Virus record (IMG/VR): IMGVR_UViG_2534681831_000034
Strand: one strand, 5' to 3'
DNA: 17,560 bases
From: a virus
Lineage: Duplodnaviria > Heunggongvirae > Uroviricota > Caudoviricetes
Each line of letters begins with the position of its first letter. The first letter of the stretch is position 1. This document shows positions 695-16,663 of this stretch, one piece after another. The notes under the pieces are model-generated. The model made no database searches. It was not told the origin of the DNA and worked only from the letters and a program-made list of their open reading frames with translations. A program made the position numbers and the translations under genes.

Positions 695-953
695 TGTGGA
701 TACCCTTTATTTCACAGTAGACGACTGCTACCGCGTGGACTTCACACCACACGGACTGGCGTTGCACTGCCTGACACCGCACGGCGAATCACTGCTGGCG
801 TATTACGACTCCCCGGCCTCCGTATTTGCGGCAATGCTGGCGCATCGCACTGCTGGCGGGTGTGCCTCGCTGAGTGAATACACCGCTGAATTTAACCGCC
901 TTTCCACCATCTTCTTGCAGGAGTGGCAGCGCGTGACGGGATACCAGCCATGA
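695..953 (+). CDS. hypothetical small protein, translationally coupled to the replication gene A
   Basis: ORF in the six-frame track (576-953). I prefer the GTG at 695 because it follows a GGAGA Shine-Dalgarno-like sequence, and because the 576 start would overlap the integrase remnant on the opposite strand. Its stop (TGA 951-953) overlaps the ATG of A at 950 (ATGA). No motif recognised. Confidence 0.35.
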
Positions 954-3790
954 GTGAGTTTGCATGGAGCTGGAATGAACCACGACCAGCCATTGATCCG
1001 GCCAGATTTACGGAGCACAGGCAGGAAACTGAAACCGACCTGCAACGCGCCATCCGTTACTACCTTGAGGCAGACAAAAAGGCTCTGGAAGAACAGGAAG
1101 CGAAGGAGGAAGCCTTTTTCGCACAATCCACCGTGGGTAAAAAACTCATGGCATCCCTTGAGGAAGCCGGACAGCGTGAAAAGCTGGCACAGAACATCAT
1201 CAGTAAGCGTCAGGCAACAGAACAAGACCCGGTGGCCCGTGCTTTTGCCACACTGAAGGTGCTTCCCGTTTATCTGCGTGAACCTCTGAGCCGCCACCTC
1301 TCTTTCCTGCGCAAAAAACAGGAAGCCGATCGCCAGAAAGGCAAAAAGAGCTGGCAGGCTGAACGCTACGCGCGCGGAACCCTGCGCAAAATATTCGAAC
1401 GTCTGGACCGCACCGATCACCGCTGGCTGACACCGGGTTATCGCTCCCTTGCCGGACGCGAACGCCTGGACGATTTGCTTTACCTGCCGCAGCTCAACAA
1501 ACACCAGATACAGACGCTGGCCACCATGACGGCGGCGATGTTCAGCAGCACCTTCGAAAAACTCTGCGATGGCTTTGGCGCGACTGATGGCGAACTGACC
1601 ATGGATGTAACGCTGAAGGCGTATCAGATGCTGGCCCGCATGGCGTTACACCTGCACGCCATGCCTCCACATTATGACGCACTGACAACAGACAAAGACC
1701 GGAGGAACGAACCGGACACGGAGCTGCTGCCGGGCGCAATCCTTCGCCTGACCTGTGCGGAATGGTGGAAACGCAAACTGTGGCTGTTACGTTGCGAGTG
1801 GCGGGAAGAACAACTCCGCGCCGCCTGTCTGGTTTCCAGAAAAACATCGCCCTATCTGAGTCAGGACGCGTTAAGCGAGTTTCGCGCACAGCGCGAGAAA
1901 ACACGCGATTTCCTGAAAAGTTTCATGCTGGAAAATGAAGACGGGTTCACGATTGATCTCGAGACGGTGTATTACGCGGGAGTAAGTAACCCGGTTCACC
2001 GTAAGGCAGAAATGATGGCCACCATGAAGGGACTGGAACTTCTGGCCGAAGCCCGTGGCGACAGAGCGGTGTTTCTGACCGTCACCTGCCCGTCAAAATA
2101 CCACGCAACAACGGAGAACGGTCATCCGAACCCCAAATGGAACGGGGCCACCATGCGCGACTCCAGCGATTACCTGGTTAACACGTTTTTTGCGGCGGTC
2201 CGCAAAAAACTGAACCGCGACGGCCTGCGCTGGTATGGCATCCGCACGGTGGAGCCTCACCATGACGGCACTGTGCACTGGCATATGATGGTCTTTGCAC
2301 ATCCGGACGAGATTGAAACCATCGTGTCCCACGTCTGCGATATTGCCATTCAGGAGGACCGCCACGAGCTGGGCGATGACATAACTCCGCGTTTTAAGGC
2401 GGAGTATGTCGACGGCTCAAAAGGCACACCAACCAGCTACATCGCCACCTACATCGGAAAGAACCTGGACAGCCGCGCCGTGGATGGCATCGACCCGAAA
2501 ACGGGCAAGCCACGCGTTGACCACGAAACCGGAAAATCAATGGCCGAGAGCGTGGAGCGCGCCATCGGCTGGGCGCGCCTTCACCGGGTCCGTCAGTTCC
2601 AGTTCTTTGGCATCCCCTCCCGTCAGGTGTGGCGTGAACTGCGCCGCCTTGCCAGCCAGATGGCACGCAATCCGGAAGGCCCGCAACGGCTGAAAGATGA
2701 TGCAATGGATGCGGTACTCGCTGCCGCCGATGCCGGGTGTTTTGCCACCTACATTGAAAAACAGGGCGGCGTACTTGTTCCACGCAAAGACTACCTGATT
2801 CGCACCGCCTACGACCTCGCAGATGAGCTGAATGATTACGGCGAACAGAGCGTACAGATTTACGGGATCTGGTCACCACTCATCGGGGAATCCTCCCGTG
2901 TGTGCACGCATCCGGATAACTGGAAACTGGTAAGACGTAAACCGGAAACGGAAGACAGCGCCCGCGAAAATGGTTTTGACCTTCAGGGCGGCCCTGCCGC
3001 CCCTTGGACTCGTGGCAATAACTGTCCCCGTGTACAGGAAACGGACAACAACGGGGCAGAACAGCCGGAAGAACGGCCAGCACCGTGGCCGCAGCTCCCT
3101 GACGGCGTTGAAGTGAACGAATGGATGCGCTCACTGAAACGGCACGAACGCCGGGCGCTGATGCGTTCGCTTCGTGACAAACAGGCAAAAAACAGCAGTG
3201 ATGAAATGCAGAGCTGGACACAGAGCCGCAAACAGCAGCGGCCTTTGCCTGATAACCACGAATTACTCGCTAAAGAATGGCGGGAGTCTGCCGAATCTCT
3301 CGGCCTGCATATCGGTGAACAGCAGATGCAGCACCTGCTACGGGGCGGCAGCCTGTACGTTGACGGCAGCATCATTGCACCGCAGGGATATGAAATTGTA
3401 CGCAAACCGGATACCCGCCCGTACAGCCGAATCACGCAGCTCTGGCAGCACCTGAGCCGTAATCACGGCGTAAGCAGCACGGAGATCCGCCATAACCCGG
3501 TCGCCAGCTATCTGGCACAGCTGGGGGCATCAGACCCCGAAGCCGCCGCACGCCTGGCATCCGCACTTCAGCAGGATCAGAACACCATGAAAACACCCGT
3601 TACCGTGCTTTCTGACATGCTGCGCGCCATCCGCGACGCAGAGCACGCACAGAGAATCAGTGAAACCACTGAACGCGCCAGCCGCAAAGCAGACCTGCTG
3701 CAGGGTGGCCTGACCAGTGGAAACAAAAAACAGACAGAAACGGGACTCACGAATCCCGTAAATGAGCAAAAAACGCGCAGCGATATATGA
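950..3790 (+). CDS. A: phage replication initiation endonuclease, P2 gpA family (HUH rolling-circle nickase)
   Basis: Long ORF (track 923-3790). It contains an HUH-type metal-binding motif (HWHMMVF) and a paired-tyrosine motif (YIATYIGK) typical of the P2 A / phiX174 A superfamily. The start at ATG 950 is preferred over GTG 923 because of the ATGA coupling with the upstream ORF; either is possible. The protein is about 200 aa longer at the C-terminus than P2 gpA as I remember it (761 aa). Confidence 0.8.
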   Translation: MSEFAWSWNEPRPAIDPARFTEHRQETETDLQRAIRYYLEADKKALEEQEAKEEAFFAQSTVGKKLMASLEEAGQREKLAQNIISKRQATEQDPVARAFATLKVLPVYLREPLSRHLSFLRKKQEADRQKGKKSWQAERYARGTLRKIFERLDRTDHRWLTPGYRSLAGRERLDDLLYLPQLNKHQIQTLATMTAAMFSSTFEKLCDGFGATDGELTMDVTLKAYQMLARMALHLHAMPPHYDALTTDKDRRNEPDTELLPGAILRLTCAEWWKRKLWLLRCEWREEQLRAACLVSRKTSPYLSQDALSEFRAQREKTRDFLKSFMLENEDGFTIDLETVYYAGVSNPVHRKAEMMATMKGLELLAEARGDRAVFLTVTCPSKYHATTENGHPNPKWNGATMRDSSDYLVNTFFAAVRKKLNRDGLRWYGIRTVEPHHDGTVHWHMMVFAHPDEIETIVSHVCDIAIQEDRHELGDDITPRFKAEYVDGSKGTPTSYIATYIGKNLDSRAVDGIDPKTGKPRVDHETGKSMAESVERAIGWARLHRVRQFQFFGIPSRQVWRELRRLASQMARNPEGPQRLKDDAMDAVLAAADAGCFATYIEKQGGVLVPRKDYLIRTAYDLADELNDYGEQSVQIYGIWSPLIGESSRVCTHPDNWKLVRRKPETEDSARENGFDLQGGPAAPWTRGNNCPRVQETDNNGAEQPEERPAPWPQLPDGVEVNEWMRSLKRHERRALMRSLRDKQAKNSSDEMQSWTQSRKQQRPLPDNHELLAKEWRESAESLGLHIGEQQMQHLLRGGSLYVDGSIIAPQGYEIVRKPDTRPYSRITQLWQHLSRNHGVSSTEIRHNPVASYLAQLGASDPEAAARLASALQQDQNTMKTPVTVLSDMLRAIRDAEHAQRISETTERASRKADLLQGGLTSGNKKQTETGLTNPVNEQKTRSDI

Positions 3791-3835
3791 AGCGCGCACA
3801 AAACAGGCAAAAACGGGATTTCAGAATCCCGTAAA
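3738..3835. promoter_or_regulatory. two copies of a 25-bp palindromic motif (AAACGGGA-N9-TCCCGTAAA); candidate parC centromere/operator or origin element
   Basis: Read directly: copy 1 at 3738-3762 (aaacgggactcacgaatcccgtaaa) and copy 2 at 3811-3835 (aaacgggatttcagaatcccgtaaa). They differ at 4 central positions, each has internal dyad symmetry (ACGGGA/TCCCGT), and their centres are 73 bp apart. Copy 1 lies in the last codons of A; copy 2 lies in the A-parM spacer, about 30 bp upstream of the parM start. Confidence 0.45.
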
Positions 3836-3866
3836 CGATTAATTAATCAACATAAGGAAAAGCGAC

Positions 3867-4826
3867 ATGAAAATTTGTATCGACGACGGCTCCACCAACA
3901 TCAAGCTGGCATGGACTGAGAACGGCGAACGCCGCAACGCCATCAGCCCGAACAGCTTCAAGTCGGAATGGTCTGCGCCGTTCGGTGGCACGCAGCCCGC
4001 GAACTACATGCTTGATGGCGTGCGCTATGGTTTTGATCCGGTCAGCGATCGCTTTGTCCAGACGACCGACACGCAATACCAATACAGTGATGTGAATGTC
4101 ATTGCCATTCATCACGCGCTGGTCAAATCAGGCATCACGCCACAGGAGGTGGATGTGGTTGTCACCCTGCCACTGAGCGAGTATTTCGACACAAACGCAC
4201 AGCCGGACATAGCCAACATCAACCGCAAAAAAGCGAACGTTATGCGCCCGGTGGAGTACCAGAACGGCGAAGCATTCACTATCCGTAACGTGCGGGTTAT
4301 GCCTGAATCCATTCCGGCTGGCTTTAAGGCACTGGCTGACATGAGTCCGTTTGAATCCCTGCTGATTGTGGATTTGGGCGGAACCACGCTGGATGTGGCA
4401 AAGGTTCAGGGGCAGCTGGCAGGTATCAGCCAGGTGTTTTGCGATCCACACGTAGGCGTTTCCCTGATGGCTGATGCCGTGCTGTCGGTGATGGCCACTA
4501 ACGGTATGCGTACCAGTCACCACATCGCCAATACCATTATTGAGCACCGTCACGATGAAGCCTGGCTGCGCCAGCACATTCACAATGACGCGCATTACAA
4601 CAGCCTGATGGCGGTTATTCGTGAAAAGGAGGAGACACTGAAACAACGAGTGATCCGCGCGCTGGCGGGTTTTTCCGGTTACGGGCGGGTGATGGTTGTC
4701 GGTGGAGGGGCGGAGATTGTGGCACCCGCTATCCGCGAAGCCTGCGGAGTTAATGCGACTTTCATCACGGACGGGGTGCCACATTTTGCTCTGGTTAATG
4801 GGCTGTACGCAATGAACAAGGAGTAA
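3867..4826 (+). CDS. parM: ParM/StbA-family actin-like plasmid segregation ATPase
   Basis: 319 aa with the actin-fold motifs IDDGSTNIKL (phosphate 1), DLGGTTLD (phosphate 2) and VVGGGAE (adenosine). It is collinear with plasmid R1 ParM (StbA) as I remember it. An AAGGA Shine-Dalgarno lies about 9 nt upstream of the ATG. Confidence 0.8.
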   Translation: MKICIDDGSTNIKLAWTENGERRNAISPNSFKSEWSAPFGGTQPANYMLDGVRYGFDPVSDRFVQTTDTQYQYSDVNVIAIHHALVKSGITPQEVDVVVTLPLSEYFDTNAQPDIANINRKKANVMRPVEYQNGEAFTIRNVRVMPESIPAGFKALADMSPFESLLIVDLGGTTLDVAKVQGQLAGISQVFCDPHVGVSLMADAVLSVMATNGMRTSHHIANTIIEHRHDEAWLRQHIHNDAHYNSLMAVIREKEETLKQRVIRALAGFSGYGRVMVVGGGAEIVAPAIREACGVNATFITDGVPHFALVNGLYAMNKE

Positions 4827-4830
4827 ACCA

Positions 4831-5142
4831 ATGACGACACCAACCAGAAGAATAAGTTTCTATCTGAAGCCAGCTGCCGTCAAGAACGAAGGAGAAGCAT
4901 GCGCCTGGCTGGACAGCCTTACACCAGAAGCCCGCAAAAGCGGCCAACGCGTGGCTTTTCTGGCCGGGCTGGCACTTCTGAAGACGAATCCGGCAGAGGC
5001 TTACCGACTGGCCGCATGGGCTGATGATGAGATGTTACCTGTGACACAAATCAGCTCAAAAAAGTTTGAAGCACAGTCTGCACCAGTGGCTAAGATAACC
5101 AGCCAGATGGCTGGGAATATCCGGGCGTTATTTCCTGAGTAA
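4831..5142 (+). CDS. parR: ParR/StbB-like centromere-binding adaptor
   Basis: 103 aa, starting 4 nt after the parM stop with an AAGGAG Shine-Dalgarno. The N-terminal region (RRISFYLKP...LDSLTPEARKSGQRVAFLAGLALLK) resembles the ribbon-helix-helix N-terminus of R1 ParR as remembered. Gene order parM then parR matches type II partition loci. Confidence 0.6.
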   Translation: MTTPTRRISFYLKPAAVKNEGEACAWLDSLTPEARKSGQRVAFLAGLALLKTNPAEAYRLAAWADDEMLPVTQISSKKFEAQSAPVAKITSQMAGNIRALFPE

Positions 5143-5270
5143 AAGCATCTGCGCGAAAAATGCTCACATTTATAGAAACAGTATCATTCCATTTGGCGCA
5201 CTTACTTCAATAATCGATCTGTTAAACAAATAGATTGTCTATTATCTATCGATTAAAACGATCAATTATC

Positions 5271-5299
5271 TTGACAGTAATGTGCCTTTTTGTAAGATC
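5271..5299 (+). promoter_or_regulatory. candidate sigma70 promoter (TTGACA-N16-TAAGAT)
   Basis: A perfect -35 hexamer TTGACA at 5271-5276 and a -10-like TAAGAT at 5293-5298, inside an AT-rich tract containing ATCGAT-centred inverted repeats. Predicted by eye only. Confidence 0.3.
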
Positions 5300-5347
5300 G
5301 TTCGCATTGTGAGCGACAAGATAATTGCGCGGCATTGTCCATGCAAA

Positions 5348-5490
5348 ACGCCCCAATAGCAGCAACTATTGGGGCGTAGAACTCGGTCGGACTCACTTAA
5401 CCTGATATGCGTGCCTTCCGAAGTAAATCAAAATGTGCGTCGTATATTTTATTGCTTACACGCACCTCTGTAAAGGCACGCATATTTTTC
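5348..5490 (+). promoter_or_regulatory. structured leader/attenuator-like RNA element upstream of the 5507 gene
   Basis: A perfect 12-bp stem hairpin (5348-5359 / 5366-5377, loop CAGCAA), then a perfect 13-bp inverted repeat (ATATGCGTGCCTT 5405-5417 / AAGGCACGCATAT 5473-5485) enclosing an inner GTGCGT/ACGCAC pair. The structure is followed by a T-run (5486-5489) and then the GAGG Shine-Dalgarno and GTG start of the downstream ORF. Confidence 0.4.
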
Positions 5491-5506
5491 CTATGAGGTA
5501 AATAAA

Positions 5507-5776
5507 GTGCGGGCTAAAACAGGTATTTGCAAGAACCCTCATCGTTATAACCCAACATTTCTGTCTCTCCCTGAATATCAAGGACAAGAAGGTCGGCACA
5601 AATGCGCTGCCTGTGCTTTTGAGCTAGGCATAAAAGATGCGCTTGAAGGACGCGCTATGGCTCAGAATGATTTAGTTTTAGCTAACATTCCGTTTAGCCA
5701 GGCTGGAACTGTAAGGCACAGAGATGCTTATGAAGCATATGTTCGTGGTTGGCGATTAATACACAGCAACAATTGA
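5507..5776 (+). CDS. small hypothetical protein with a putative C-x3-H...C-x2-C metal-binding motif
   Basis: 89-aa ORF with a GTG start preceded by GAGGT at about 7 nt. Cys8/His12/Cys33/Cys36 could form a zinc knuckle. It is AT-richer than the phage backbone and is followed immediately by a canonical intrinsic terminator. No family recognised. Confidence 0.5.
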   Translation: MRAKTGICKNPHRYNPTFLSLPEYQGQEGRHKCAACAFELGIKDALEGRAMAQNDLVLANIPFSQAGTVRHRDAYEAYVRGWRLIHSNN

Positions 5777-5785
5777 TATTTTTGA

Positions 5786-5808
5786 AGCGCCGATAAGGCG
5801 CTTTTTTT
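5786..5808 (+). terminator. rho-independent terminator
   Basis: GC stem AGCGCC (5786-5791) / GGCGCT (5797-5802) with loop GATAA, followed by a run of seven T (5802-5808), 10 nt after the stop of the 5507-5776 ORF. Confidence 0.7.
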
Positions 5809-6209
5809 GTTTGCACGATAGTGCACAAGTTTGCACAATTTTTTTGAACGACTTTTTGTACTTCCGGCCCGCGTGGCGGCTGGATCCGTCAAGGATCCGT
5901 ACGTGCACAAAAAACGCGTTTTTTCTACGCGCAGGTGACGGGGGAACAGCCCGCGTTTCAGGGGGGTAAACAGCATTCCCTGAACGATGTCGCAGAGACA
6001 CAACAGAATGGCCATATTTCTCACGCTGAGCATGAAAAAGGCGTGAGGGCTTTTGATTTGATGGGGTGAAAGGTAAGGCCGTCAAAATCGCACTGAGGCA
6101 GCGAGAACATACAGTCAACGCGGTGGGATTGCGTAAGAGTCTGACCGTCGATGGTGGCGATAAACTGGAAGGCGTCGTGAAATTATCTGATTGATACAGG
6201 AGCTGGAGA

Positions 6210-6238
6210 GCCGGGGCATAAATTTTTTATGCCCCGGC
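6210..6238. repeat. perfect 13-bp-stem hairpin (GCCGGGGCATAAA-TTT-TTTATGCCCCGGC)
   Basis: Read directly from the sequence. It lies about 100 bp upstream of the 6338 ORF and has no flanking U-tract on either strand outside the stem, so it is not a canonical terminator. Confidence 0.5.
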
Positions 6239-6337
6239 GAAGCAGCAGACAAGCGAAGCGCGTCAGTGATGCGGCACCTTGCCGACCACACTTCATAAGT
6301 GCAAAATACGAGCAAAGAAATCAATGGAGGCTGTTTT

Positions 6338-6862
6338 ATGGTCATTAATTACAAGCAGTTACGAGAAAAACGAGAGCAGGTAAAGGAAAGTTTTCGCCGC
6401 AATGAAGATCTGACCCCGCTTGTACACCTTGCTCAGGGAATTGTAGATGCTTATGAAATCTCTCTGGAGCTGCCATCACAGACATGGACTGATAGCGACG
6501 GTAATCGCCAGCATTACGTTTCATGCGGACTGGAAACAACTGAAGGGTTTCGCAGAATGCCTTTATCTCAGATTCCTGCCTCTACCCCCAAAGCAAGGGG
6601 CGGCAATGATGAGCGAAAACTGATTTTCAGCATTGAGACAGTGGTTGACGACACACCTGGCGAAGTCGCCTTCGTGCATACTCCTCTTTCGATCGCAATG
6701 TATAACGATGAAATACAGGTTCGCGTTAATAATAATATCGTGCCACTTAAAGAAGGTAATTCACCCTACACCACCGTTTGTGAAGCCATTCAATATTACG
6801 TTCTCTCTGAAATTGATAATCTCAAGCCTGACGGCACCCAGAAAATGGTTCAACTCTGGTAA
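6338..6862 (+). CDS. hypothetical 174-aa protein (cargo/moron gene, unknown function)
   Basis: ATG at 6338 is preceded by GGAGG at 7 nt (the track ORF begins at 6299, but that start has no ribosome-binding site). AT-richer codon composition than the flanking phage genes. It ends at a bidirectional terminator and is convergent with portal gene Q. No catalytic motif recognised. Confidence 0.55.
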   Translation: MVINYKQLREKREQVKESFRRNEDLTPLVHLAQGIVDAYEISLELPSQTWTDSDGNRQHYVSCGLETTEGFRRMPLSQIPASTPKARGGNDERKLIFSIETVVDDTPGEVAFVHTPLSIAMYNDEIQVRVNNNIVPLKEGNSPYTTVCEAIQYYVLSEIDNLKPDGTQKMVQLW

Positions 6863-6867
6863 AAAGG

Positions 6868-6893
6868 ACAGCCCCATCACGGGGCTGTTTTTT
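6868..6893. terminator. bidirectional rho-independent terminator between the convergent cargo gene and Q
   Basis: An 8-bp stem ACAGCCCC (6868-6875) / GGGGCTGT (6881-6888) with loop ATCAC, flanked by A5 on the left and T6 on the right, so a U-tract follows the stem on both strands. It overlaps the Q stop codon (6877-6879). Confidence 0.7.
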
Positions 6894-7923
6894 CATCAAG
6901 AAGAGCATAAGAATTAAAACGGATCACCTCTTCGCCAAGCCAGTCATTGATGTGCTTCATGGCCTCCATAACGGGCATCAGCTCGTTAATTGCATAAACC
7001 CGCGCGGCCTTCTCCACATCACCAAACGCACTTTTTTCGCCCGGCATCGCCCCCATCAGTTGCGGCGGAACACGGTGCGCAGCCAGCACATCATCACGGG
7101 ATGCCGCCTTAACATTCATGAACTCATCTTTTGCGGTGATCTGCTGGAACGGCAAAATTTGCACCCCCTCTTTGCCCCCGTTGGGCGCATGAATGAGCAC
7201 GTTTTTAAATGCACCACTACCACGTGCACCCTGTAATGTTTCTTTCAGGGAGTCCATGCTTTCGCGGTTTACCTGCGCTGCACCGATGTAGATGATGCAC
7301 CCGGCGTGGGATCCGTTGTCGTAATACAGTTTTCTGAACATGTCCGCCGAATGAGACAGGCTGGCCGAGAGTAATGCGCCGAGATATTCCGGCATGCCGT
7401 AGATTTCCTGGTTAATATCCGGATTCATCAGGTGGCACACTTTGCCAGGGCGAAACTGAAACGCGTCCTTGCCATCCTGCACATACCACCATGATTCAAG
7501 ATCGCTTCCGCGTCGCATGTATTTCGCCAGTGCGTGCCGTAATTTAAGCGGTTCGCCGAGCATATTGCTTCGAAGCTCAAGGTATGCGTTACCGAACACA
7601 AACCAGTCCAGCGCCAGCGCCGAGAAATCCTGCCGGGAAAGCAGCGGGTGCGGAATATAGCAGCCGAGCAATACATTGCGCTTAAAGTAAAGCGCAGACT
7701 GATGCCAGGACGTTTGCCGGGCGGCTCTTGCCAGACCGTACCAGTCCACCGGGGTTTCATACCACCGCCCGTTATCAGCACAGTACATATTGTCCAGCAA
7801 ATCATGCCCGGTCAGGCGATAAGGACCATCAAAAGTGAATGCACTGAGCGACGATTCTTTCCTGAGCGCATCAGCGAGATCAATGCGTGAACTCATGCGC
7901 ACTTTTTTATTTTTTCTGCTCAT
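6877..7923 (-). CDS. Q: portal protein, P2 gpQ family
   Basis: 348 aa, matching the length of P2 gpQ (about 344 aa) and its position immediately downstream of the terminase ATPase. Its ATG (7921-7923) overlaps the stop of the upstream gene (ATGA coupling). Confidence 0.85.
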   Translation of the reverse strand: MSRKNKKVRMSSRIDLADALRKESSLSAFTFDGPYRLTGHDLLDNMYCADNGRWYETPVDWYGLARAARQTSWHQSALYFKRNVLLGCYIPHPLLSRQDFSALALDWFVFGNAYLELRSNMLGEPLKLRHALAKYMRRGSDLESWWYVQDGKDAFQFRPGKVCHLMNPDINQEIYGMPEYLGALLSASLSHSADMFRKLYYDNGSHAGCIIYIGAAQVNRESMDSLKETLQGARGSGAFKNVLIHAPNGGKEGVQILPFQQITAKDEFMNVKAASRDDVLAAHRVPPQLMGAMPGEKSAFGDVEKAARVYAINELMPVMEAMKHINDWLGEEVIRFNSYALLDEKTAP

Positions 7924-9673
7924 CAGAACTCCATAACCGTGAAACGCTCGTTTTCTCCTTCGCCGCCAATTGGTTCGTTAATGACAGCAAGCATGGTTGC
8001 CCACGCAAGGTCGCCGTGGCTGATCCCCCTCGCGCGGTCCGTTTCGTAAGTGATAAAACCGCCCGGTGTTTTCACCTTACGCACGGCGTTAAAGGCCGCG
8101 ACCAGCTCGCGTTCGGCGCGATCGTATTCCCACCGCCCGGCACGCATTATTTGCAGCATTTTCAGTACCAGCGACCGTTTTGATGACAGCGTGAAGGTGT
8201 ACGGAATAGCAGCAGGGAAAAACCGTTTCACTATCTGATAAACAGCCTCCCCGTTCCCGCCCGTCACATCAATGCCGATGTGTTCCACGTTGTAGCGACA
8301 CGTGAACTCTTCAATGACTCTGGCCTGTTCTTCAAACTCCAGCCCCTGAACGCGTCGCGTCTCCACCGTTCGAAAACGGCCACCAGGAACAGCCGGAGGA
8401 ACCACCACAGACACAGCGCCGCTGTCGCCGTTGCCACTGCTGCCGTTTGCGTCATACCCAATCCATACCGGACGATTCCCCATCGGGCGGGGAGCAAAAG
8501 GTTTCCAGTCTTTCCAGTCGTCGTATCCGTCAACACCGCAGCCAATCAGGATATTCAGGTTAAATGCCGATTCCCCTTCGCGGACAAACTCACACATATA
8601 GAGATTGAGGAACTCGTCTTCGGTGTTTTCATCACGAATTTCGTCGATATCGGTGTGTTTCCAGCCGTGATTAACCACATCTTCCAGCGTGACAATTTGC
8701 CGCCACGTCCGGTCAGGGCAGATAAGCCCGTTATGCAGCGTATTCCAGTCCACAGAAAAACGCCGGCGTTTATGCGTGGCCTTTTTCTCGTTCCAGCGGT
8801 CGCCGTTCCAGTAGGCGTATGCCTCGTGCGTTTCGGTGGATGGCGTGGAGAAGTAGGTGCGCCGCAGTCCGCTGAGGGTTGCCATAGCGCCAGCCACCTT
8901 GCGTAGTTCAGCAAAGCGACTGACCCAGAAAAATTCATCAAAATAAAAATTGCCCGTATAGGACTGCGCCGACGCAGCAGAAGTGCCGAGAAAATGCAGC
9001 TCTGCGCCATTGGAGAGGATGATTTTATCGCCCCCTTTCAGCTCCACATCAACTTCAGCCGCAGCCTTCTGAATAATGCTTTTAAACTGGAACGCCTGAC
9101 GACGCGACGCAGACAAAAAATCTGGTTACGCTGGTAAGGTTGCGCCACATCGTCACGCAGCGCCATCAGCAGAGCTTCCTGTGCAAAATACCAGGTCGCC
9201 CCAATCTGTCGGGATTTCAGGATCATCCTGTTACGTATCCCGGCTTCCCTGCAAAGGGTCAGGGAGTCAAACCAGCCCCGCTGATGCCACTCCAGCCTGC
9301 TGATGATTTTTTCCCGCAGTGCGGAAATCTGTTCCGGCGTGAAATGATTTTTGAGTTTTTTCGCCCGGCCTTTCTTTCCTGCGGCCATCACATCCGGATG
9401 GCCATCATGCAGCTTTTTAAGCTGCCGGGTCAGCAGGTCTATTTCCTTAAAATCACCGCCTGTTTTATTCTGTTTTTCAGTAAGCTGGATGAGGCGCGCA
9501 TCGATGGACTGCGTGACACGCTGCACGGGTGGCGTTTCATCCCACTGGTCGCGTTTTTTCCACGCATAAATCGTGTTCGGGTTTATTCCCATCAGACGTG
9601 ATATTTCTGCGGGCGGATAACCCTGCCAGTAAAGTTGCCGCGCACGCTGGCGCACAAAAGCGTCCTGAATCAT
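7923..9673 (-). pseudogene. P: terminase large (ATPase) subunit, P2 gpP family, interrupted by an apparent 1-nt frameshift
   Basis: Two overlapping minus-strand ORFs (9673-9038, 211 aa, and 9116-7923, 397 aa) together span about 583 codons, close to P2 gpP (590 aa). The first ORF ends in an out-of-frame tail. The frames switch at an A6/T6 homopolymer at 9115-9120; adding one T would fuse them into one frame (..QRNQIF-LSASRRQAFQF..). Confidence 0.75.
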
Positions 9674-9827
9674 TGCTCCCCCTGAGTAATTACAGGAAGA
9701 TTACCCGCGCGCGAAACCGTTCTCCTTAACCCCCTGTTCTGGCCGTTTTCTTACAACAAAAGCCCTTTGTATCAGCCTGTTACGCTTTGCCATCATGACT
9801 GAAGAACCAGTCAGAGGGGCAAAAACT

Positions 9828-10664
9828 ATGGCTAATGAAAAAAAGACATCCCGCAAAAAGTTTCGCGTGGCTGTCTCCGGATCAACTGTTGATGGCCGTG
9901 AAATCAGTCCGGTGCATCTGCGTGAAGCCGCCGAGAACTTCAACCCGGATGTTTACGCTGCCCGCGTGAACGTTGAGCACTATCTCTCGCCATGCCCGTC
10001 AAGCGAATTTTCCGCAATGGGCGATGTCACCGCACTGAGTACGGAAGACATTACGGAAGGTCCGCTGGCCGGACGTACTGCGCTGTATGCAGAAATCGAA
10101 CCGACCGAGCGCATGAAGCAGCTTGTCGCGGACGGCAAGAAAATCTATTCCAGTATCGAACTGCACCCGCAGTTCTCCGTTAACGGGCGTGCCTATCTGG
10201 TCGGGCTGGCGATGACCGACACCCCGGCAAGCCTGGGCACTGAGCGCCTGAAATTCACGGCACAGCAACGTCAGGCGGTAATGACGTTCAACAGTGTCCA
10301 GGGTGAAGCGCCGCTTATCTCCGAAGCCATCGAGTCTGAAATCATCGAAATGGCAGAACAACGCCAGGAAGAAGGCACCCAGTGGTTTAACCGCGTAATG
10401 GGGATTATTGGCCGTGGCCGCAAAGCGGATGACGCCAGTTTTTCCCGTATTCAGGAAGCGGTGGAAGGCGTCGCAACGTCACAGGCCGACATTATCGACC
10501 GTTTTAATGTGCTGGAAACCCGCCATCAGCAGGACCGCCAGAAAATTACGTCACTGACCACAGAGCTGACAGCACTGAAGGAAAAACTGCGCACGCAGGA
10601 CGGCGATCCGCAGAACCGGTTCACCGCAACGGGCGCAGCCTCCGACCAGCTGGCTGACTTCTGA
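9828..10664 (+). CDS. O: capsid scaffolding protein, P2 gpO family
   Basis: Collinear with P2 gpO (about 284 aa) as remembered: ..RVAVSGSTVDGREIS.., ..YLVGLAMTDTPASLGTERL... ATG 9828 is preferred over the track start at 9795 because AGAGGGG lies 8 nt upstream of it. Confidence 0.85.
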   Translation: MANEKKTSRKKFRVAVSGSTVDGREISPVHLREAAENFNPDVYAARVNVEHYLSPCPSSEFSAMGDVTALSTEDITEGPLAGRTALYAEIEPTERMKQLVADGKKIYSSIELHPQFSVNGRAYLVGLAMTDTPASLGTERLKFTAQQRQAVMTFNSVQGEAPLISEAIESEIIEMAEQRQEEGTQWFNRVMGIIGRGRKADDASFSRIQEAVEGVATSQADIIDRFNVLETRHQQDRQKITSLTTELTALKEKLRTQDGDPQNRFTATGAASDQLADF

Positions 10665-10687
10665 TAAGACAAAGGAGCAAATTTTTT

Positions 10688-11740
10688 ATGAATCTGGTGA
10701 TGTCAGATATTACCCGCAACAAGCTGGGTTGCTATATGGCGCAGCAGGCGTCGCTTAATAATATCCCGGTTTCTGCGCTGGTATCGCGATTTACCGTAGA
10801 ACCCTCGGTGCAGCAGCGTTTTGAAAACGCCTCAAAGGAAAGCACCGAATTTACAAAAAGAATTAACGTGATCGGCGTGACCGACCAGAAAGGCGAAAAA
10901 ATCCTCCTGGATACCACAGGACCGATTGCGCGCACGAATACCAGTTATGACGGCACAAAACGCCGTAACCCGAATAACGTGGTTGATCTGAAAAACCGCA
11001 AATACCAGTGCGAACAGGTGAACTACGACACGTTTATTTCATATCCGCAGCTTGATGCCTGGGCGGCACATCCTGATTTTCAGTCCCGCATCAGCGCACA
11101 GATTGCCCGACAGGTGGCGCTTGACCGCATCATGATCGGTTTCAACGGCACGTCTCACGCGGATGAGTCCAACTTCAGCACCAACAAGCTGCTTCAGGAC
11201 GTTAACGTGGGCTGGCTGGAGCACATCAGAACCGACGCCAGCGAACGCGTTATGAATGACGTGACGCTGACCTCCCGCAACATGGACAACACCGTGGCGC
11301 ACGCGGGTAAGTATGCGAACGCTGATGCACTGGTACAGGACGCACGCTCATCCCTGCTGGATGAATGGCACAAGGAAGCTGACGACCTCGTGGTGATTAT
11401 GGGGCGCAACCTGTTTAACTCGCTGCGTCTGCCCGTGCTGAACAGCATCAGCGGCCAGAATCCCAATGCGGAATTACTTGCCGGGCAGCTCATCCTGTCA
11501 TCGCGCACCATTGGCGGGCTGGGCGTGTTCCTTGCGCCGTTCTTCCCGGATGCAACGATGCTTATCACCTCGTTCAACAACCTGTCGATTTACTGGCAGA
11601 AAGGTTCAATGCGTCGCCTGATGAAAGACGAACCGGAATACAACCGCATCGCCACCTACCAGTCCATCAATGACGCTTATGTCGTTGAAGACTATGGCAA
11701 GTGCGCGATGGTCACTGGCCTGAAGTTCGCCGACAGCTAA
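10688..11740 (+). CDS. N: major capsid protein, P2 gpN family
   Basis: 350 aa. Conserved blocks shared with P2 gpN as remembered (FTVEPSV, IMIGFNGT, VGWL, YVVEDY), and correct position after O. Confidence 0.85.
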   Translation: MNLVMSDITRNKLGCYMAQQASLNNIPVSALVSRFTVEPSVQQRFENASKESTEFTKRINVIGVTDQKGEKILLDTTGPIARTNTSYDGTKRRNPNNVVDLKNRKYQCEQVNYDTFISYPQLDAWAAHPDFQSRISAQIARQVALDRIMIGFNGTSHADESNFSTNKLLQDVNVGWLEHIRTDASERVMNDVTLTSRNMDNTVAHAGKYANADALVQDARSSLLDEWHKEADDLVVIMGRNLFNSLRLPVLNSISGQNPNAELLAGQLILSSRTIGGLGVFLAPFFPDATMLITSFNNLSIYWQKGSMRRLMKDEPEYNRIATYQSINDAYVVEDYGKCAMVTGLKFADS

Positions 11741-11785
11741 TCAACTCACGGCGGGCATCATGCCCGCCTGTAACGGAGAGAAAAA

Positions 11786-12586
11786 ATGATTACTCCTGCA
11801 CAGCAACACTGGCAGAACGTGATGGCACAGCGCGCAGGCCGGGCGAATGAAGGCGTGGACCACGCCGCGCGTACCGCGCATGAAGAGGTGCTGTATCGTC
11901 TGCGTCTGGCACAGGCCCGCCTTAAGGGCGTACAGGCCAGAAGCGCGAAAGCCGCCATCAAAAAAGAGTTATTGCCGGACTTTTCCGGCTGGATTGAGGG
12001 AACGCTGGAGGCTGACGGCGGGCAGCAGGATGAAGTGATTGCCACGCTGATGGTGTGGGCGATTGACTGCGGCGATCTTCCGCTGGCGCTGCGTATTGGT
12101 GCGTATGTGGTCCGTCATAACCTCATTATGCCGGATAACTTTGGCCGTACTGCTGCCACGGTACTGACCGAAGAAATCTGCAACCCGGTACTGACGCAGG
12201 CCGGGACGGATGCCGACGCGGATTTATCCGCCTTTATCGAACCACTGGATACCCTCCGGGAGATTGTCACCGACCAGGACATGCCGGACGAAGTGCGCGC
12301 CAAATTATGCAAGGCGTGCGCCTTTGCCCGTCGTGGTCTGACCGATGCAGACAACATGGCCTTATCACTGAAGCTGCTGCGCGAAGCGATGCACCTGAAC
12401 CCGAACGCAGGTGTGAAACGCGAGATTGCAACCCTTTCCCGCGCCCTGAAAAAAGCCGATTCCGCAGCCGAACCAGAAGACGCCAGCGCACAGCAGGCGC
12501 AGGACGAAAGCAGCAAAAGTAAAAAGACAACGCGGAAGCCTGCAACACGAAAAACCACCGCGACGCAGAAGGCGAAGCGCGGTTAA
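11786..12586 (+). CDS. M: terminase small (endonuclease) subunit, P2 gpM family
   Basis: 266 aa. Similar to P2 gpM as remembered (N-terminal ITPAQQHW.., DMPDEVRAKL.., basic lysine-rich C-terminal tail), in position after N. Confidence 0.8.
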   Translation: MITPAQQHWQNVMAQRAGRANEGVDHAARTAHEEVLYRLRLAQARLKGVQARSAKAAIKKELLPDFSGWIEGTLEADGGQQDEVIATLMVWAIDCGDLPLALRIGAYVVRHNLIMPDNFGRTAATVLTEEICNPVLTQAGTDADADLSAFIEPLDTLREIVTDQDMPDEVRAKLCKACAFARRGLTDADNMALSLKLLREAMHLNPNAGVKREIATLSRALKKADSAAEPEDASAQQAQDESSKSKKTTRKPATRKTTATQKAKRG

Positions 12587-12603
12587 CGACTGACCCCGTC
12601 AGC

Positions 12604-12674
12604 GGGCGGCGTGCGCGGTGTTCCGGTTTGACTCCGTGACCGTTTACACCGCGCACCCACCGCCCGATTTTTTT
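12604..12674 (+). terminator. terminator/attenuator-like structure between M and L
   Basis: Imperfect long inverted repeat GGGCGGCGTGCGCGGTG (12604-12620) / CACCGCGCACCCACCGCCCG (12647-12666), followed by a T7 run (12668-12674) just upstream of the L ribosome-binding site. Confidence 0.35.
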
Positions 12675-12688
12675 CAGGAGTGAACCCC

Positions 12689-13183
12689 ATGAGTATGGTT
12701 GCCAGAACTGAACCCAGACCCGCAGAGGACGACATCACCGATACCGATGATGGCGATACCCGCATTTCAGCGGGTGCATTCTGGCCGGATATTGTGCTGC
12801 GCGAGCTGCGTCTGGCGGTACGACTGCCGGGCCGCGTGACCACCTCCCGCCTGCTGCATACTGCCACCGGGGCTGTGGCACACGTTACCCGCGAGCTGGA
12901 AGCATGGCAGCAGGAACAGCAGGCAGCTGGCCATCAGACGCTGGCCGATGTTCCGGCCCCTGTAATTAACGGAGAAAGCGTCAATCTCTGGCACTGGCGC
13001 AATGCGGTTTATACCGCCACGCGCGCCCTGATTCTGGAGCGTTATCGTGATGCAGACACAACGGACAAGGGCGACCGCCGGGCGGACGCTCTGGATATAC
13101 AGACATCGGATTTGTGGCGTGATGTGAGCTGGGCCATCTCTGACATTCTGTGCCGCCCGCGAATCTTTGCGGAGTTGTGCTGA
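12689..13183 (+). CDS. L: head completion/stabilisation protein, P2 gpL family
   Basis: ATG at 12689 with AGGAG 8 nt upstream (the track begins at GTG 12680, inside the Shine-Dalgarno). The C-terminal block ..ERYRDADTTDKGDRRADALD..LWRDVSWAI.. resembles P2 gpL as remembered. Confidence 0.8.
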   Translation: MSMVARTEPRPAEDDITDTDDGDTRISAGAFWPDIVLRELRLAVRLPGRVTTSRLLHTATGAVAHVTRELEAWQQEQQAAGHQTLADVPAPVINGESVNLWHWRNAVYTATRALILERYRDADTTDKGDRRADALDIQTSDLWRDVSWAISDILCRPRIFAELC

Positions 13184-13383
13184 TGAAAGTGAAGGCACTG
13201 GAAGGCGACACCGTGGATTCGCTCTGTTTCCGGTACTACGGCACGACGCAGGGCGTCACCGAAAAGGTGCTGGATGCCAACCCCGGACTCTGTCAGCAGG
13301 TATTTCTGGACGCCGGGCAGGAAGTTGAGATGCCGGAGCCGGAGAAGAAGAAACGAGAAATGATTCAGTTGTGGGGGGAGTAG
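13183..13383 (+). CDS. X: tail protein X, P2 gpX family
   Basis: 66 aa beginning MKVKALEGDTVDSLCFRYYG, collinear with P2 gpX (about 67 aa). Its ATG overlaps the L stop (TGATG). Confidence 0.8.
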   Translation: MKVKALEGDTVDSLCFRYYGTTQGVTEKVLDANPGLCQQVFLDAGQEVEMPEPEKKKREMIQLWGE

Positions 13384-13385
13384 CA

Positions 13386-13709
13386 GTGAGCACCATTCAA
13401 ACAGGGATCACAGAGCAGGTTATTGCGTGGCTCTTTGACCACCTGCCAACGGTGTATGCAGTAGGCGCGGCGGTCAGCATTTCCGCGCTGATGAGTCTTT
13501 ATGACGGACGAACACTGGTTCAGACCGTAACGGGATCGCTGGCGTGCGGCGTTCTTGCCATGGCCGTGGCCGGGTCGTTGCGCTTCTTCGGGTTTCCTGA
13601 AGATGCCGTGACGTTTATCGGCGCATCAATCGGTTTTATGGGTGCAGAGAAAGCACGCGACAAGGTTATTGCGGCCTTTAATCGCAGGGTGAAGGAGAAG
13701 GACGAATGA
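13386..13709 (+). CDS. putative holin
   Basis: About 107 aa with two or three hydrophobic segments and a charged C-terminal tail, located immediately upstream of the endolysin. GTG 13386 is preceded by GGGGGGAG. It does not resemble P2 gpY in sequence. Confidence 0.55.
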   Translation: MSTIQTGITEQVIAWLFDHLPTVYAVGAAVSISALMSLYDGRTLVQTVTGSLACGVLAMAVAGSLRFFGFPEDAVTFIGASIGFMGAEKARDKVIAAFNRRVKEKDE

Positions 13710-14098
13710 GCAACACATTTAAATTCAGCAGCCGGAGCGAAAAGAATTTGCAGGGCGTAAATCCTGATCTGGTGAAAGTGACCCGACGGGCACTGGAAAT
13801 CTCGGAAGTGGATTTTGGTATCACCGAAGGGTTGCGCAGCCGTTACCGCCAGAAGCAACTGGTGGCCACGGGTAAGAGCCAGACCATGAACAGCCGCCAC
13901 CTTACGGGGCATGCCGTGGATGTTGTGGCTTATATCGGCAGCCAGGTGTCATGGGAATGGCCGCTGTACGAAAAAATCGCAGCAGCATTCAGACAGGCCA
14001 GCCGGGAACTGAATATTCCGGTGGAATGGGGCGGCGACTGGAAGACCCTGAAAGACGGACCGCATTTTCAGTTACCACACGGAGCCTATCCGGCATGA
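13706..14098 (+). CDS. endolysin, peptidase M15-type (zinc-dependent L-Ala-D-Glu / D-Ala-D-Ala peptidase family)
   Basis: 130 aa with an H..D..H arrangement (..SRHLTGHAVDV.. and ..DGPHFQ..) characteristic of M15 peptidase endolysins. ATGA overlap with the holin gene. Confidence 0.7.
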   Translation: MSNTFKFSSRSEKNLQGVNPDLVKVTRRALEISEVDFGITEGLRSRYRQKQLVATGKSQTMNSRHLTGHAVDVVAYIGSQVSWEWPLYEKIAAAFRQASRELNIPVEWGGDWKTLKDGPHFQLPHGAYPA

Positions 14099-14502
14099 AG
14101 CTCTGGCCCACGCTTGGCGTCGCTTTCCTTCTGATTGCCGGATGGGGAACATCCATGCGTCTGTCTTGGTCGCTGGGCCGGGAGAACGCCAGAAACGAAG
14201 CACAGGCCAGCACCCTGAAAAGTACCGCCGACACCCTGAATATCATCAGCGCCGGGGGACAGGATATGCAGCAGGTGCTGGCGCAACTCCGCGTGGAAAA
14301 TCAGCAACGCAATCAGGACGGAGAGGTCAGACGTGAACAGCTACGCAACGATATTGCAAAAGATGAATGCGCCCACGCTTTGCCTGACGCTCGTTTTACT
14401 GACAGGCTGCGCAGGCACGCAGAACGCGCCACTGCCAGCGCCGTCAGTCCGGCTTATACCGCAGACGCTGACCATACCGGTAACGCCTCCCCGCTTCCCT
14501 GA
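14095..14502 (+). CDS. i-spanin (Rz/LysB-like)
   Basis: N-terminal transmembrane segment (LWPTLGVAFLLIAGWG) followed by a charged, Q/R-rich, coiled-coil-like periplasmic region. ATGA overlap with the endolysin stop. Confidence 0.7.
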   Translation: MKLWPTLGVAFLLIAGWGTSMRLSWSLGRENARNEAQASTLKSTADTLNIISAGGQDMQQVLAQLRVENQQRNQDGEVRREQLRNDIAKDECAHALPDARFTDRLRRHAERATASAVSPAYTADADHTGNASPLP

Positions 14503-14653
14503 TACTCCCACATGGGGAAATCTCGGTATATGGGGCGACCGCCTTCTGGATGCACTGGAAACCTGTAACGCGGATAAACGGGCCATTGAATTACTGGAAC
14601 AGCGCAGGCTGCAACGACTGAACAACGAGGATAACAACCATGCTGAAAACTGA
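14333..14653 (+). CDS. o-spanin (Rz1/LysC-like outer-membrane lipoprotein), starting inside the i-spanin gene in another frame
   Basis: Lipoprotein signal with lipobox LLTGC, followed by a proline-rich mature region. GTG 14333 has a GGAGAGG Shine-Dalgarno; ATG 14363 is an alternative start. Overlapping architecture as in P2 lysB/lysC. Confidence 0.65.
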   Translation: MNSYATILQKMNAPTLCLTLVLLTGCAGTQNAPLPAPSVRLIPQTLTIPVTPPRFPDTPTWGNLGIWGDRLLDALETCNADKRAIELLEQRRLQRLNNEDNNHAEN

Positions 14654-15107
14654 TTCCCTGCGTGAAGCCATGACCCGTTCATGCCGATGGTGTCAGGCCA
14701 ACCCGGAAAAATTCACCATTTTCGTGGAGAGCGGCAACATTGAAACGACCGGAGAAACCCCATCGTTTGTTTACCGCTATCAGATGGTGATGTTTGTCAT
14801 GGATTACGCCGGGGAGCTGGACGACCTCACGCTGCCGCTGCTGGCGTGGTTATCCGAAAATCAGCCACAGTTGTTGCTCAACCCTGAGCGTAATCAGGAC
14901 ATCAAATTCTCCGCCGTTATCAATGACGATGACAGCGCCGATCTCCTGTTTACGCTCCCCCTGCGGGAACGCGTTCGCATCACGCGCAGCAGTCAGGGGA
15001 CACCGCAGGCAGAACACCTGCCGGAGCCAAAACCCCGCCTGCCATCTCCCGAAGGCGACTGGTCGCATGTATTCCAGGATGTGACGTGGGGTGAAAGCGA
15101 TGGATAA
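14640..15107 (+). CDS. R: tail completion protein, P2 gpR family
   Basis: 155 aa. MLKTDSLREAMT.. and ..LAWLSENQP.. are collinear with P2 gpR (155 aa) as remembered. Confidence 0.8.
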   Translation: MLKTDSLREAMTRSCRWCQANPEKFTIFVESGNIETTGETPSFVYRYQMVMFVMDYAGELDDLTLPLLAWLSENQPQLLLNPERNQDIKFSAVINDDDSADLLFTLPLRERVRITRSSQGTPQAEHLPEPKPRLPSPEGDWSHVFQDVTWGESDG

Positions 15108-16313: not shown

Positions 16314-16660
16314 CAACCCGCTACACAGGAATGAATCCGGACGGGACGGGAAACCTGAACGATATGGAGCACCTGAAACAGTCAGTCAGGGATATCCTGA
16401 CCACCCCGCTGGCAAGCCGGGTTATGCGACGGGAATATGGCAGCCTTGTGCCTGATTTGATTGACGAACCCATGAATAACACCACGCGTCTGCAATGCAT
16501 GAGTGCTGCCGTGATTGCGCTGACACGATGGGAACCCCGCATTGCCCTGGATGCCATCGACGTTGTCTGGAAAGCGGGAGGCCGCGCCGGGGTGACGCTG
16601 TCGGGCACTGTCATGCAGACCATGCAGAATGTTGAGTTAACCATCACGCTGAGGGAGTAA
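16310..16660 (+). CDS. W: baseplate wedge protein, P2 gpW (gp25-like) family
   Basis: 116 aa, positioned after V. GTG start with AGGAGG upstream. Size matches P2 gpW (115 aa). Confidence 0.8.
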   Translation: MTTRYTGMNPDGTGNLNDMEHLKQSVRDILTTPLASRVMRREYGSLVPDLIDEPMNNTTRLQCMSAAVIALTRWEPRIALDAIDVVWKAGGRAGVTLSGTVMQTMQNVELTITLRE

Positions 16661-16663
16661 ATC

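Follow-up and report, generated by a model that had tools for sequence, protein, structure and literature searches.

It has been established that the gpA-gpQ region of P2-like phages, which adjoins cos, is a hotspot for anti-phage systems, harbouring old, tin and many others; about one in four of these phages has a partition system at this locus, about a third of the cloned unknown systems proved protective, and non-defence cargo (e.g. ParMR and toxins) is also housed there (Rousset 2022, PMC9122126). In this study we analysed one such locus, located at positions 5143-6893 of the IMG/VR virus record IMGVR_UViG_2534681831_000034 (17,560 nucleotides, the whole of which is referred to here as the window), where two small plus-strand genes, encoding proteins of 89 and 174 amino acids (aa), lie between parR and the portal gene Q. 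The window represents a P88-like, P2-family prophage of Escherichia coli, with 100% identity to O111 strains, whose nearest phages are classed as Xuanwuvirus (P88-like group). An original prediction, made from the nucleotide sequence, had described the segment as a single AT-rich island of two orphan genes, possibly acting as a one- or two-gene defence or superinfection-exclusion module. Its placement was correct, since this is the cos-proximal gpA-gpQ hotspot in which P2-like phages carry defence cargo (Rousset 2022, PMC9122126). The proteins of the window appear in Table S5A of that survey as ParM + ParR + "hypothetical + hypothetical", with no function assigned (PMC9122126); the gene arrangement is thus already catalogued, although uncharacterised.

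The segment resembles other P2-family hotspot cargo (PMC9122126) in its position between the replication and portal genes, next to cos, and in being AT-richer, self-contained (with a promoter and terminator of its own) and exchanged from one near-identical phage to another. It differs in having no homology to old, tin or PADLOC models, and in being organised as two slots that flank a conserved block, rather than as one locus. The 89-aa gene can also be compared with the DpnII/MboI-type restriction-modification cassettes (DpnM, DpnA, DpnII), in which its homologues are embedded in Firmicutes, Bacteroidota, Spirochaetes and other phyla, whereas the gene of the window occurs alone, with neither methylase nor endonuclease. 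To our knowledge, the classical pneumococcal DpnII cassette is composed of three genes and contains no such small protein. The predicted control region of the 89-aa gene recalls that of IS10, in which the Dam-sensitive promoter pIN is combined with the antisense RNA-OUT: in both cases GATC sites lie on promoter hexamers, and a short convergent cis-antisense RNA is directed against the 5' part of the mRNA. The face-to-face promoter/antisense pairs of P22 (ant/sar) and lambda (cII/oop) have a similar layout. However, none of these pairs shares sequence homology with the window (an Rfam match to sar is hairpin-only and below threshold), the RNA predicted for the window spares the start codon, and Dam dependence is putative.

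Judged by sequence comparison, the segment is composed of three independently varying pieces, in which two unrelated single-gene cassettes flank a conserved block. In megablast searches against phage genomes, positions 5143-6271 were common to phages 520873 and 503458, and positions ~5790-6893 to PhiR44_2, 569R5 and others; the overlap (5812-6271) was found in all 16 related phage records, whatever cargo they carried. The left cargo module, which is the plus-strand cassette of the 89-aa gene, spans positions 5143-5811 (41.6% GC; 96-97% identity with 520873 and 503458), the conserved backbone block present in all 16 related records spans 5807-6271, and the right cargo module, containing the 174-aa gene (also on the plus strand), spans 6272-6895. 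The GC content of 5143-6893 (45.6% versus 56.0% at 923-5142 and 56.1% at 6877-17560) bears out the AT-richness noticed previously. The dip is non-uniform, with values of 41.6% (5143-5806), 51.4% (5807-6271) and 45.5% (6272-6876), and the notion of a single island has to be given up: its middle third (5807-6271) is conserved phage backbone and not cargo.

The order of genes in related phages is equally informative. In phage 520873, the 89-aa gene lies between ParR and the conserved block, which adjoins Q directly, with no 174-aa gene; in PhiR44_2 four other genes stand between ParR and the conserved block, and the 174-aa gene between this block and Q; and in P88_4B11 a different, 196-aa gene is present on the left side and the right slot is empty. 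Cargo is therefore swapped between close relatives. A survey of 5426 complete E. coli genomes detected the left module in 166 of them (identity never below 99%) and the right module in 397 (90-100% identity), both occurring together in at most 74. Since the two genes are swapped in relatives and have separate genome distributions, they constitute independent cargo in two slots, and the A-Q hotspot of P88-like phages consists of two slots, one on either side of the probable cos. In the relatives, the boundary between cargo and backbone lies directly 3' of each cargo's own terminator. Confidence in this architecture is high, unlike confidence in the biochemistry of the encoded proteins.

Several further observations concern the left slot. 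The 89-aa gene has been left unannotated in many otherwise identical E. coli RefSeq genomes, and in strain CH4793 the left module is split by an IS1 element. Five IMG/VR contigs (L149-L153) of other P2-like phages encode a 63%-identical variant of the small protein right after a ParR of 48-55% identity, and in three of the five the portal protein is just 30% identical to that of the window. The slot right after parR is therefore reused across P2-like lineages.

The conserved block (5807-6271) probably corresponds to the cos/packaging region, an assignment based on its position and conservation. The cos sites of P2 and 186 occupy an equivalent position, adjoining Q, and the linear record LR595891 was opened at window position 5857. 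The block contains GTTTGCAC repeats (5809-5839), a tandem GGATCCGT (5880-5901) and a perfect 13-bp hairpin (6210-6238); a 42-aa open reading frame (ORF) at 6066-6194 is annotated within it in some phage records, and the block is otherwise conserved and non-coding, lying between the right-end cargo and Q. Local alignment with the cos regions of P2 and 186 gave scores no better than those of shuffled sequences (30 and 49 of 200 shuffles reached these scores), the sole match with 186 cos being the 9-mer GCGTGGCGG. As there is no significant similarity to either site, the identity of the block as cos can only be inferred.

The 89-aa protein (WP_001390707) is encoded at positions 5507-5776 (plus strand) by a gene with a GTG start codon preceded by a GAGG Shine-Dalgarno sequence (5495-5498). 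Its sole family match is PHROG 3941 (function unknown), and a first search with the protein retrieved near-identical copies only. With tblastn, relatives of 56-61% identity were detected in two phages, one P22-like from Salmonella and the other from Providencia, and a profile search revealed 788 clusters of proteins of 80-95 aa (45-60% identity), all named "hypothetical" and originating from Proteobacteria, Bacteroidota, Elusimicrobia and Desulfobacterota. Loci in species genomes add Firmicutes, Spirochaetes, Actinobacteria, Chloroflexi, Verrucomicrobia, Myxococcota and Campylobacterota to this list. With ~790 cluster relatives in many phyla for this protein, and 89 representative relatives for the 174-aa protein, neither gene can be regarded as an orphan, contrary to what had been supposed.

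The genetic neighbourhoods of the family were surveyed in 80 species-representative loci, within 5 kb around the small gene. A D12-class adenine methylase (Dam/DpnM-like) was present in 43 of the 80, a DpnII-family endonuclease in 34 (Pfam DpnII match, E = 4e-111) and a second N4/N6 methylase in 36. The methylase is nearest to DpnM (2DPM, E = 4e-56) and to E. coli Dam (E = 5e-39), both of which are GATC-specific. The order of genes varies between cassettes (M>s>R>M2 or M>R>M2>s, where s denotes the small gene, which may also face the operon in convergent orientation). In Clostridial cassettes of the M>s>R>M2 type, the small gene separates M from R, and its coding region almost abuts or overlaps those of its neighbours. 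Elsewhere the role of nuclease falls to a PDDEXK_11 or a DUF6996-DUF6997-DUF7226 protein, and the methylase is kept. Because other nucleases replace DpnII while the methylase stays, the constant partner of the family is the GATC methylase or GATC site and not a particular nuclease. The domain also occurs in fusions, the partners in which are DNA-acting domains (examples at L039:9157-9996, L038:6837-8261 and L101:6864-8261): in three loci, inside DpnII cassettes, it forms the C-terminus of a DndB/DGQHR protein, and in one protein two half-repeats precede a NOV_C (DUF3883) domain.

Two components of these cassettes are worth recording in their own right. The DUF6996 + DUF6997 + DUF7226 protein (425-428 aa; L023:4839-6125 and L008:4704-5981) accompanies the small protein and a Dam-like methylase in two phyla that are far apart, and is likely to be an uncharacterised restriction endonuclease; searches revealed neither a relative of it in the PDB nor any literature on it. 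The Clostridial DpnM-like methylases possess a conserved N-terminal extension of ~60 aa (MEFMSAREAADKWGISQRRVAVLCSE...), which is helix-turn-helix (HTH)-like and was seen in nine loci (L056, L059, L062, L068, L077, L081, L090, L096 and L104), ~1 kb upstream of the small gene. This extension could auto-regulate the cassette.

The phage-borne copies, found in Enterobacterales and Orbales, stand alone, with no D12 methylase within 4 kb, and the same is true of the window. They occupy several classic types of accessory-gene ("moron") slot: downstream of a cI/S24-type repressor (in the P22-like phage and in Frischella and Gilliamella prophages), between the late antiterminator Q and the lysis genes (Providencia phage), and after ParR in at least two P2-like lineages. 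The presence of a chromosomal Dam methylase is established for hosts belonging to the Enterobacterales and assumed for the Orbales. If these hosts do have Dam, the 89-aa protein would always live in cells with GATC methylation.

The region upstream of the 89-aa gene contains several conserved elements. The predicted sense promoter, P_s (5271-5298, plus strand; score of 10/12 in a promoter scan), consists of a -35 hexamer TTGACA (5271-5276), a 16-nt spacer and a -10 hexamer TAAGAT (5293-5298). One GATC site (5260-5263) lies 7 nt upstream of the -35 hexamer, another (5296-5299) overlaps the -10 hexamer and a third is located at 5216; the sites at 5260 and 5296 give the window the configuration of Dam-regulated promoters, in which GATC lies within or abuts the -10 and -35 hexamers. 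We aligned 26 non-redundant leaders of phage-borne homologues (less than 90% mutual identity; mean column identity 42%) and found the arrangement GATC-N5-7-TTGAnn-N16-18-TAnnnT in 25 of them, ~200-260 nt upstream of the start codon. In eight leaders a second GATC overlaps the -10 hexamer, and in five the -35 hexamer itself is TTGATC. Out of all 256 tetramers, GATC is the most over-represented in the leaders (94 observed versus 23.3 expected; 4.0-fold). An 11-nt perfect inverted repeat (CAATTATCTTG at 5263-5273 and CAAGATAATTG at 5317-5327) brackets P_s, and might serve as a pair of operators or fold into a stem where the leader begins.

Facing P_s, a predicted antisense promoter was identified by the promoter scan at 5446-5474 on the minus strand (-35 TTTACA, 5474..5469; 17-nt spacer; -10 TAAAAT, 5451..5446). 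A minus-strand alignment revealed its counterpart, TTTAC[AT], exactly 17 nt and TAnnnT, in all 25 leaders compared; CTTTAC and the TA of the -10 hexamer are invariant columns, and the spacers diverge. Transcription from this promoter would produce a cis-antisense RNA of ~94 nt (5345-5438, minus strand, both ends predicted), able to pair with the 5' leader of the mRNA for the 89-aa protein and closed by a hairpin (5377..5348, minus strand) followed by UUUUG, which was found by a repeat search. The predicted fold energy of this RNA is -34.2 kcal/mol (z = -3.8), and it would overlap the leader but not the ribosome-binding site or start codon. In each of the 25 leaders the antisense promoter is followed by a GC-rich hairpin of 9-15 bp; as its stems are out of register in the MAFFT alignment, the hairpins were extracted from each sequence and compared, which showed that the sequence of the inner stem varies and the pairing is kept (3-6 pair types at positions 2-6). 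In most relatives a GATC-centred palindrome, GAGATCTC or, in the Providencia group, GTGATCAC, is located at the start of the antisense RNA. An Rfam scan of positions 4800-7100 returned two sub-threshold matches (ctRNA_pGA1 and sar) that cover the 5348-5377 hairpin alone and do not indicate that the RNA belongs to either family.

The mRNA leader also contains a 13-nt perfect long-range inverted repeat (5405-5417 with 5473-5485, plus strand), situated just upstream of the ribosome-binding site. The predicted fold of the leader (z = -3.6) uses this stem, the first arm of which lies inside the antisense RNA region, and it may have a regulatory role; in many relatives a hairpin sequesters the ribosome-binding site. 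The cassette ends with an intrinsic terminator (5784-5811, plus strand; hairpin at 5784-5804 followed by seven T residues), which forms the right edge of the left module. Viewed at the level of sequence, the promoter, hairpin and GATC elements are conserved signals, and the transcripts are predicted from them. The restriction-modification cassettes encode the small protein within the operon and have no leader of the type present in the window.

Eleven residues of the 89-aa family are invariant (C8, H12, R30, H31, C33, C36, S64, Q65, A66, R70 and H71), and the invariance of the cysteine and histidine residues suggests a putative CHCC zinc site (C8, H12, C33 and C36). The protein is built of two repeats of ~33 aa (unit LPxSQxGxxRHKxAxxAYxxGY), whose homology is supported by hhalign (probability 97%, E = 6.6e-11). 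The AlphaFold2 model is small, helical and confident (predicted local distance difference test score, pLDDT, of 85), with short helices and the Cys/His site, and no structural match for it was found in the PDB; a sequence search of the PDB with the family profile returned only a chance CxxC match (E = 0.83). The protein is soluble (maximum Kyte-Doolittle score of 0.58 in a 19-residue window), no HTH family of Pfam matches it, and hhalign gave a probability of 0.8% for a relation with lambda Ral. Taken together, its sequence features indicate that it is probably a zinc-binding, tandem-repeat protein.

The 174-aa protein (WP_000236489) is encoded at positions 6338-6862 (plus strand) by a gene with an ATG start codon and a GGAGG sequence at 6326-6330; the mechanically called ORF begins at a GTG at 6299. 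Its predicted promoter (6279-6307, plus strand; -35 TTGCCG, 17-nt spacer, -10 CAAAAT), read from the sequence, is weak by comparison with the consensus. The same hexamers and 17-nt spacing, with a different spacer sequence, are found upstream of a Salmonella homologue of 63% protein identity, which resides in the same slot beside Q. A bidirectional terminator (6868-6895; hairpin at 6868-6888 followed by six T residues) is common to the 174-aa gene (plus strand) and the Q-P operon (minus strand). Both predicted ORFs, and for each of them a terminator-like hairpin with a T run, were therefore found where they had been expected, between ParR (4831-5142) and Q (6877-7923, minus strand).

The sole family match of the 174-aa protein is PHROG 5091 (function unknown). 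Near relatives occur in Enterobacteriaceae only, and one single-protein scan for remote homologues returned nothing; an exhaustive profile search yielded 89 representatives of 155-175 aa, none of which has a Pfam domain. A homologue in Trabulsiella (46% identity) directly follows gpA and precedes HicAB and Phd/Fic modules, and a remote one lies between the antiterminator Q and the holin gene in a lambdoid contig. The family is confined to accessory-gene slots of prophages. The protein is soluble and acidic, with an isoelectric point (pI) of 5.0 (family range 4.3-6.3), and its model (pLDDT 81) has an alpha/beta structure, with two helices at the N-terminus, one at the C-terminus and a beta sheet between them; a structural search with this model gave no informative match. 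It is most likely a protein-binding modulator.

To the left of the segment lie the replication gene and the partition genes. The gpA gene (923-3790, a 955-aa ORF) encodes a protein in which the Phage_GPA domain is confined to residues 194-518, with long extensions at both termini; the gene is interrupted by IS1203 in the O111 strain 11128 and is intact in the window. ParM is encoded at 3867-4826. We found no obvious parC-like iteron array at 3790-3867 or 5143-5260, and none that was convincing near parM/parR: the 76 bp upstream of parM are repeat-free, and only weak 10-nt repeats occur downstream of parR.

The explanation that we consider best, proposed tentatively and with the chance of its being right as a whole falling a little short of even, is that the hotspot holds two independent cassettes, the left encoding a DNA-binding modulator linked to GATC methylation and controlled by Dam and antisense RNA, and the right encoding a modulator of another kind; confidence in the biochemical part of this proposal is low. 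P_s, a sigma-70 promoter with Dam sites beside its -35 hexamer and over its -10 hexamer, would drive the synthesis of a structured leader of ~200 nt together with the 89-aa gene, and the convergent promoter inside this leader would give rise to the ~94-nt cis-antisense RNA. The 89-aa protein may bind DNA as a pseudo-dimer and read GATC sites or the methylation state of such sites, the gene being kept by phages in a stand-alone form in Dam-positive hosts. In a lysogen, Dam methylation of the gene's own promoter might gate its expression, which the antisense RNA would hold in check, so that the protein would be made when GATC sites are under-methylated, e.g. on newly entered or rapidly replicating DNA, on which it could act as a regulator or exclusion factor. 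The right cassette would use its own weak promoter to produce an acidic cytoplasmic protein, a protein-binding modulator unrelated to the product of the left cassette. DNA binding, GATC specificity, Dam dependence and an anti-phage effect are all inferred features of this proposal.

Several points weigh against it. The transcripts, the zinc site, DNA binding and the phenotype are all predicted and not experimental. Not all members of the 89-aa family are basic (median pI 7.7), in about a third of the non-enterobacterial loci there is no methylase nearby, and no GATC was found in the promoters of those restriction-modification cassettes that we examined. The 26 leaders are homologous, and the counts on which the GATC enrichment is based are not independent events. 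Moreover, the leader of the window lacks the GAGATCTC palindrome that most relatives have at the start of the antisense RNA, and the U-tract 3' of the hairpin is weak in several relatives, making the 3' end of the RNA uncertain. The modulator role proposed for the 174-aa protein is largely conjectural.

Other explanations have to be weighed against the same data. One or both genes might provide anti-phage defence or superinfection exclusion protecting the lysogen, in the manner of old and tin of P2, a reading that overlaps the one preferred here. It is favoured by the location in the validated gpA-gpQ defence hotspot (PMC9122126), by the occurrence of both genes in other classic accessory/defence slots (downstream of cI, or between Q and the lysis genes), by the promoter and terminator belonging to each gene, and by the exchange of cargo among near-identical phages. 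The HMM searches, however, matched neither protein to a Pfam or NCBIfam family, leaving only PHROGs of unknown function; nothing was found in Pfam, NCBIfam or PADLOC for either protein or for antisense ORFs, and the PADLOC-DB v2 HMMs gave no match at E <= 1 for either protein or for alternative ORFs; nothing found links either protein to a known defence family. Neither protein is hydrophobic or contains an enzymatic or membrane effector domain; the hotspot also holds non-defence cargo (ParMR, toxins), and the arrangement is listed in Table S5A of Rousset (2022) as "hypothetical" genes only. We therefore regard a defence function as possible but doubtful. Far less credible is the idea that the two genes form one cooperating system, to which we assign only a very small probability. 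They are same-strand neighbours in the window, and the four-gene arrangement recurs in the published table (PMC9122126), but 465 bp of conserved backbone and a terminator for each gene separate them, each occurs in phages without the other, at most 74 E. coli genomes contain both (of 166 with the first and 397 with the second), and homologues in other phage types never co-occur. These distribution data, with the two genes occurring independently on opposite sides of the conserved block, effectively refute a two-gene system. What is retained from the original interpretation is the location in the hotspot, the swapping of cargo and the promoter-like sites and terminators of each gene; the single island, the two-gene unit and the orphan status are not.

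The antisense element raises a different question, namely whether the left cassette could be a type I toxin-antitoxin system, with the 89-aa protein toxic if over-produced, the antisense RNA acting as antitoxin, and prophage stabilisation or abortive infection as the outcome. RalR/RalA of the rac prophage is a type I system with a non-membrane, DNA-acting toxin and an antisense RNA, and thus provides a precedent. Like SymE/SymR and RalR/RalA, the cassette combines a small prophage protein with a conserved predicted cis-antisense RNA and a long structured leader; the antisense promoter is convergent and conserved, many relatives have the hairpin sequestering the ribosome-binding site, and the cassette is stand-alone and prophage-borne. 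In contrast to these systems, the 89-aa family is also encoded without an antisense partner in restriction-modification operons, and because it is expressed there in-operon and without such a leader, the protein is not obviously toxic alone. It is also soluble, unlike the usually hydrophobic or membrane-active small toxins, and the predicted antisense RNA is clear of the ribosome-binding site and start codon. On balance, we consider a toxin-antitoxin function unlikely. Somewhat less likely still is a role as a controller-like or Ral-like restriction-modification factor, which would postpone or relieve restriction of the DpnII type, or else enhance the activity of the methylase, and a copy of which phages would keep in order to manipulate GATC systems encountered by themselves or by their host. 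The placing of the Clostridial small gene exactly between M and R, and an association that tracks the methylase rather than one nuclease fold, speak for it, and the 89-aa family resembles the C proteins of restriction-modification systems in its small size and in being encoded, in many cassettes, directly upstream of the endonuclease gene. The 89-aa family differs from C proteins in having no HTH, a Cys/His putative zinc site, a tandem repeat and a variable position in the cassette, where it may be last or convergent; it is unrelated to lambda Ral, and the Clostridial methylases of its cassettes carry their own HTH-like N-terminus, which could regulate the cassette. Furthermore, DpnII-type enzymes are unable to cut host or phage DNA in Dam-positive enterobacteria, which makes an anti-restriction role in these bacteria difficult to envisage.

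The comparative evidence on the 89-aa protein points toward GATC restriction-modification and Dam biology, and toward tight regulation, rather than toward a recognisable abortive-infection effector. A bolder version of the preferred explanation, that of a reader of GATC methylation, may also be formulated, although we think it improbable as it stands. The 89-aa protein could be the founding member of a novel class of small proteins that depend on zinc and sense whether GATC sites are methylated. In cassettes it would couple the action of the endonuclease or methylase to genome methylation, and temperate phages of Dam-positive bacteria would have captured it as a stand-alone epigenetic sensor, with a promoter firing only when its own GATC sites are under-methylated and an antisense RNA setting the threshold. 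Once made, the protein would target DNA that is under-methylated because it is foreign or in the course of replication.

The locus itself is of a known kind, i.e. already catalogued P2-hotspot cargo. The new elements are its two-slot anatomy, the link of the 89-aa family with GATC restriction-modification cassettes, and the conserved control region combining GATC sites with an antisense RNA; we found no description of these three points in the literature searched or in the protein names of any source, nor did literature searches with the accessions, PHROG identifiers, DUFs or the combination of Dam, antisense and prophage reveal any description of the 89-aa and 174-aa families. The two-slot anatomy of the A-Q region matters for the mining of such loci for multi-gene systems. 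The 89-aa family is widespread and unnamed, tied to Dam/DpnII-type cassettes in many phyla and carried alone by phages of Dam-positive bacteria. If it does read GATC sites or their methylation, it would be a new component of one of the best-studied families of restriction-modification systems, as well as a new example of phage genes wired to the DNA methylation of their host.

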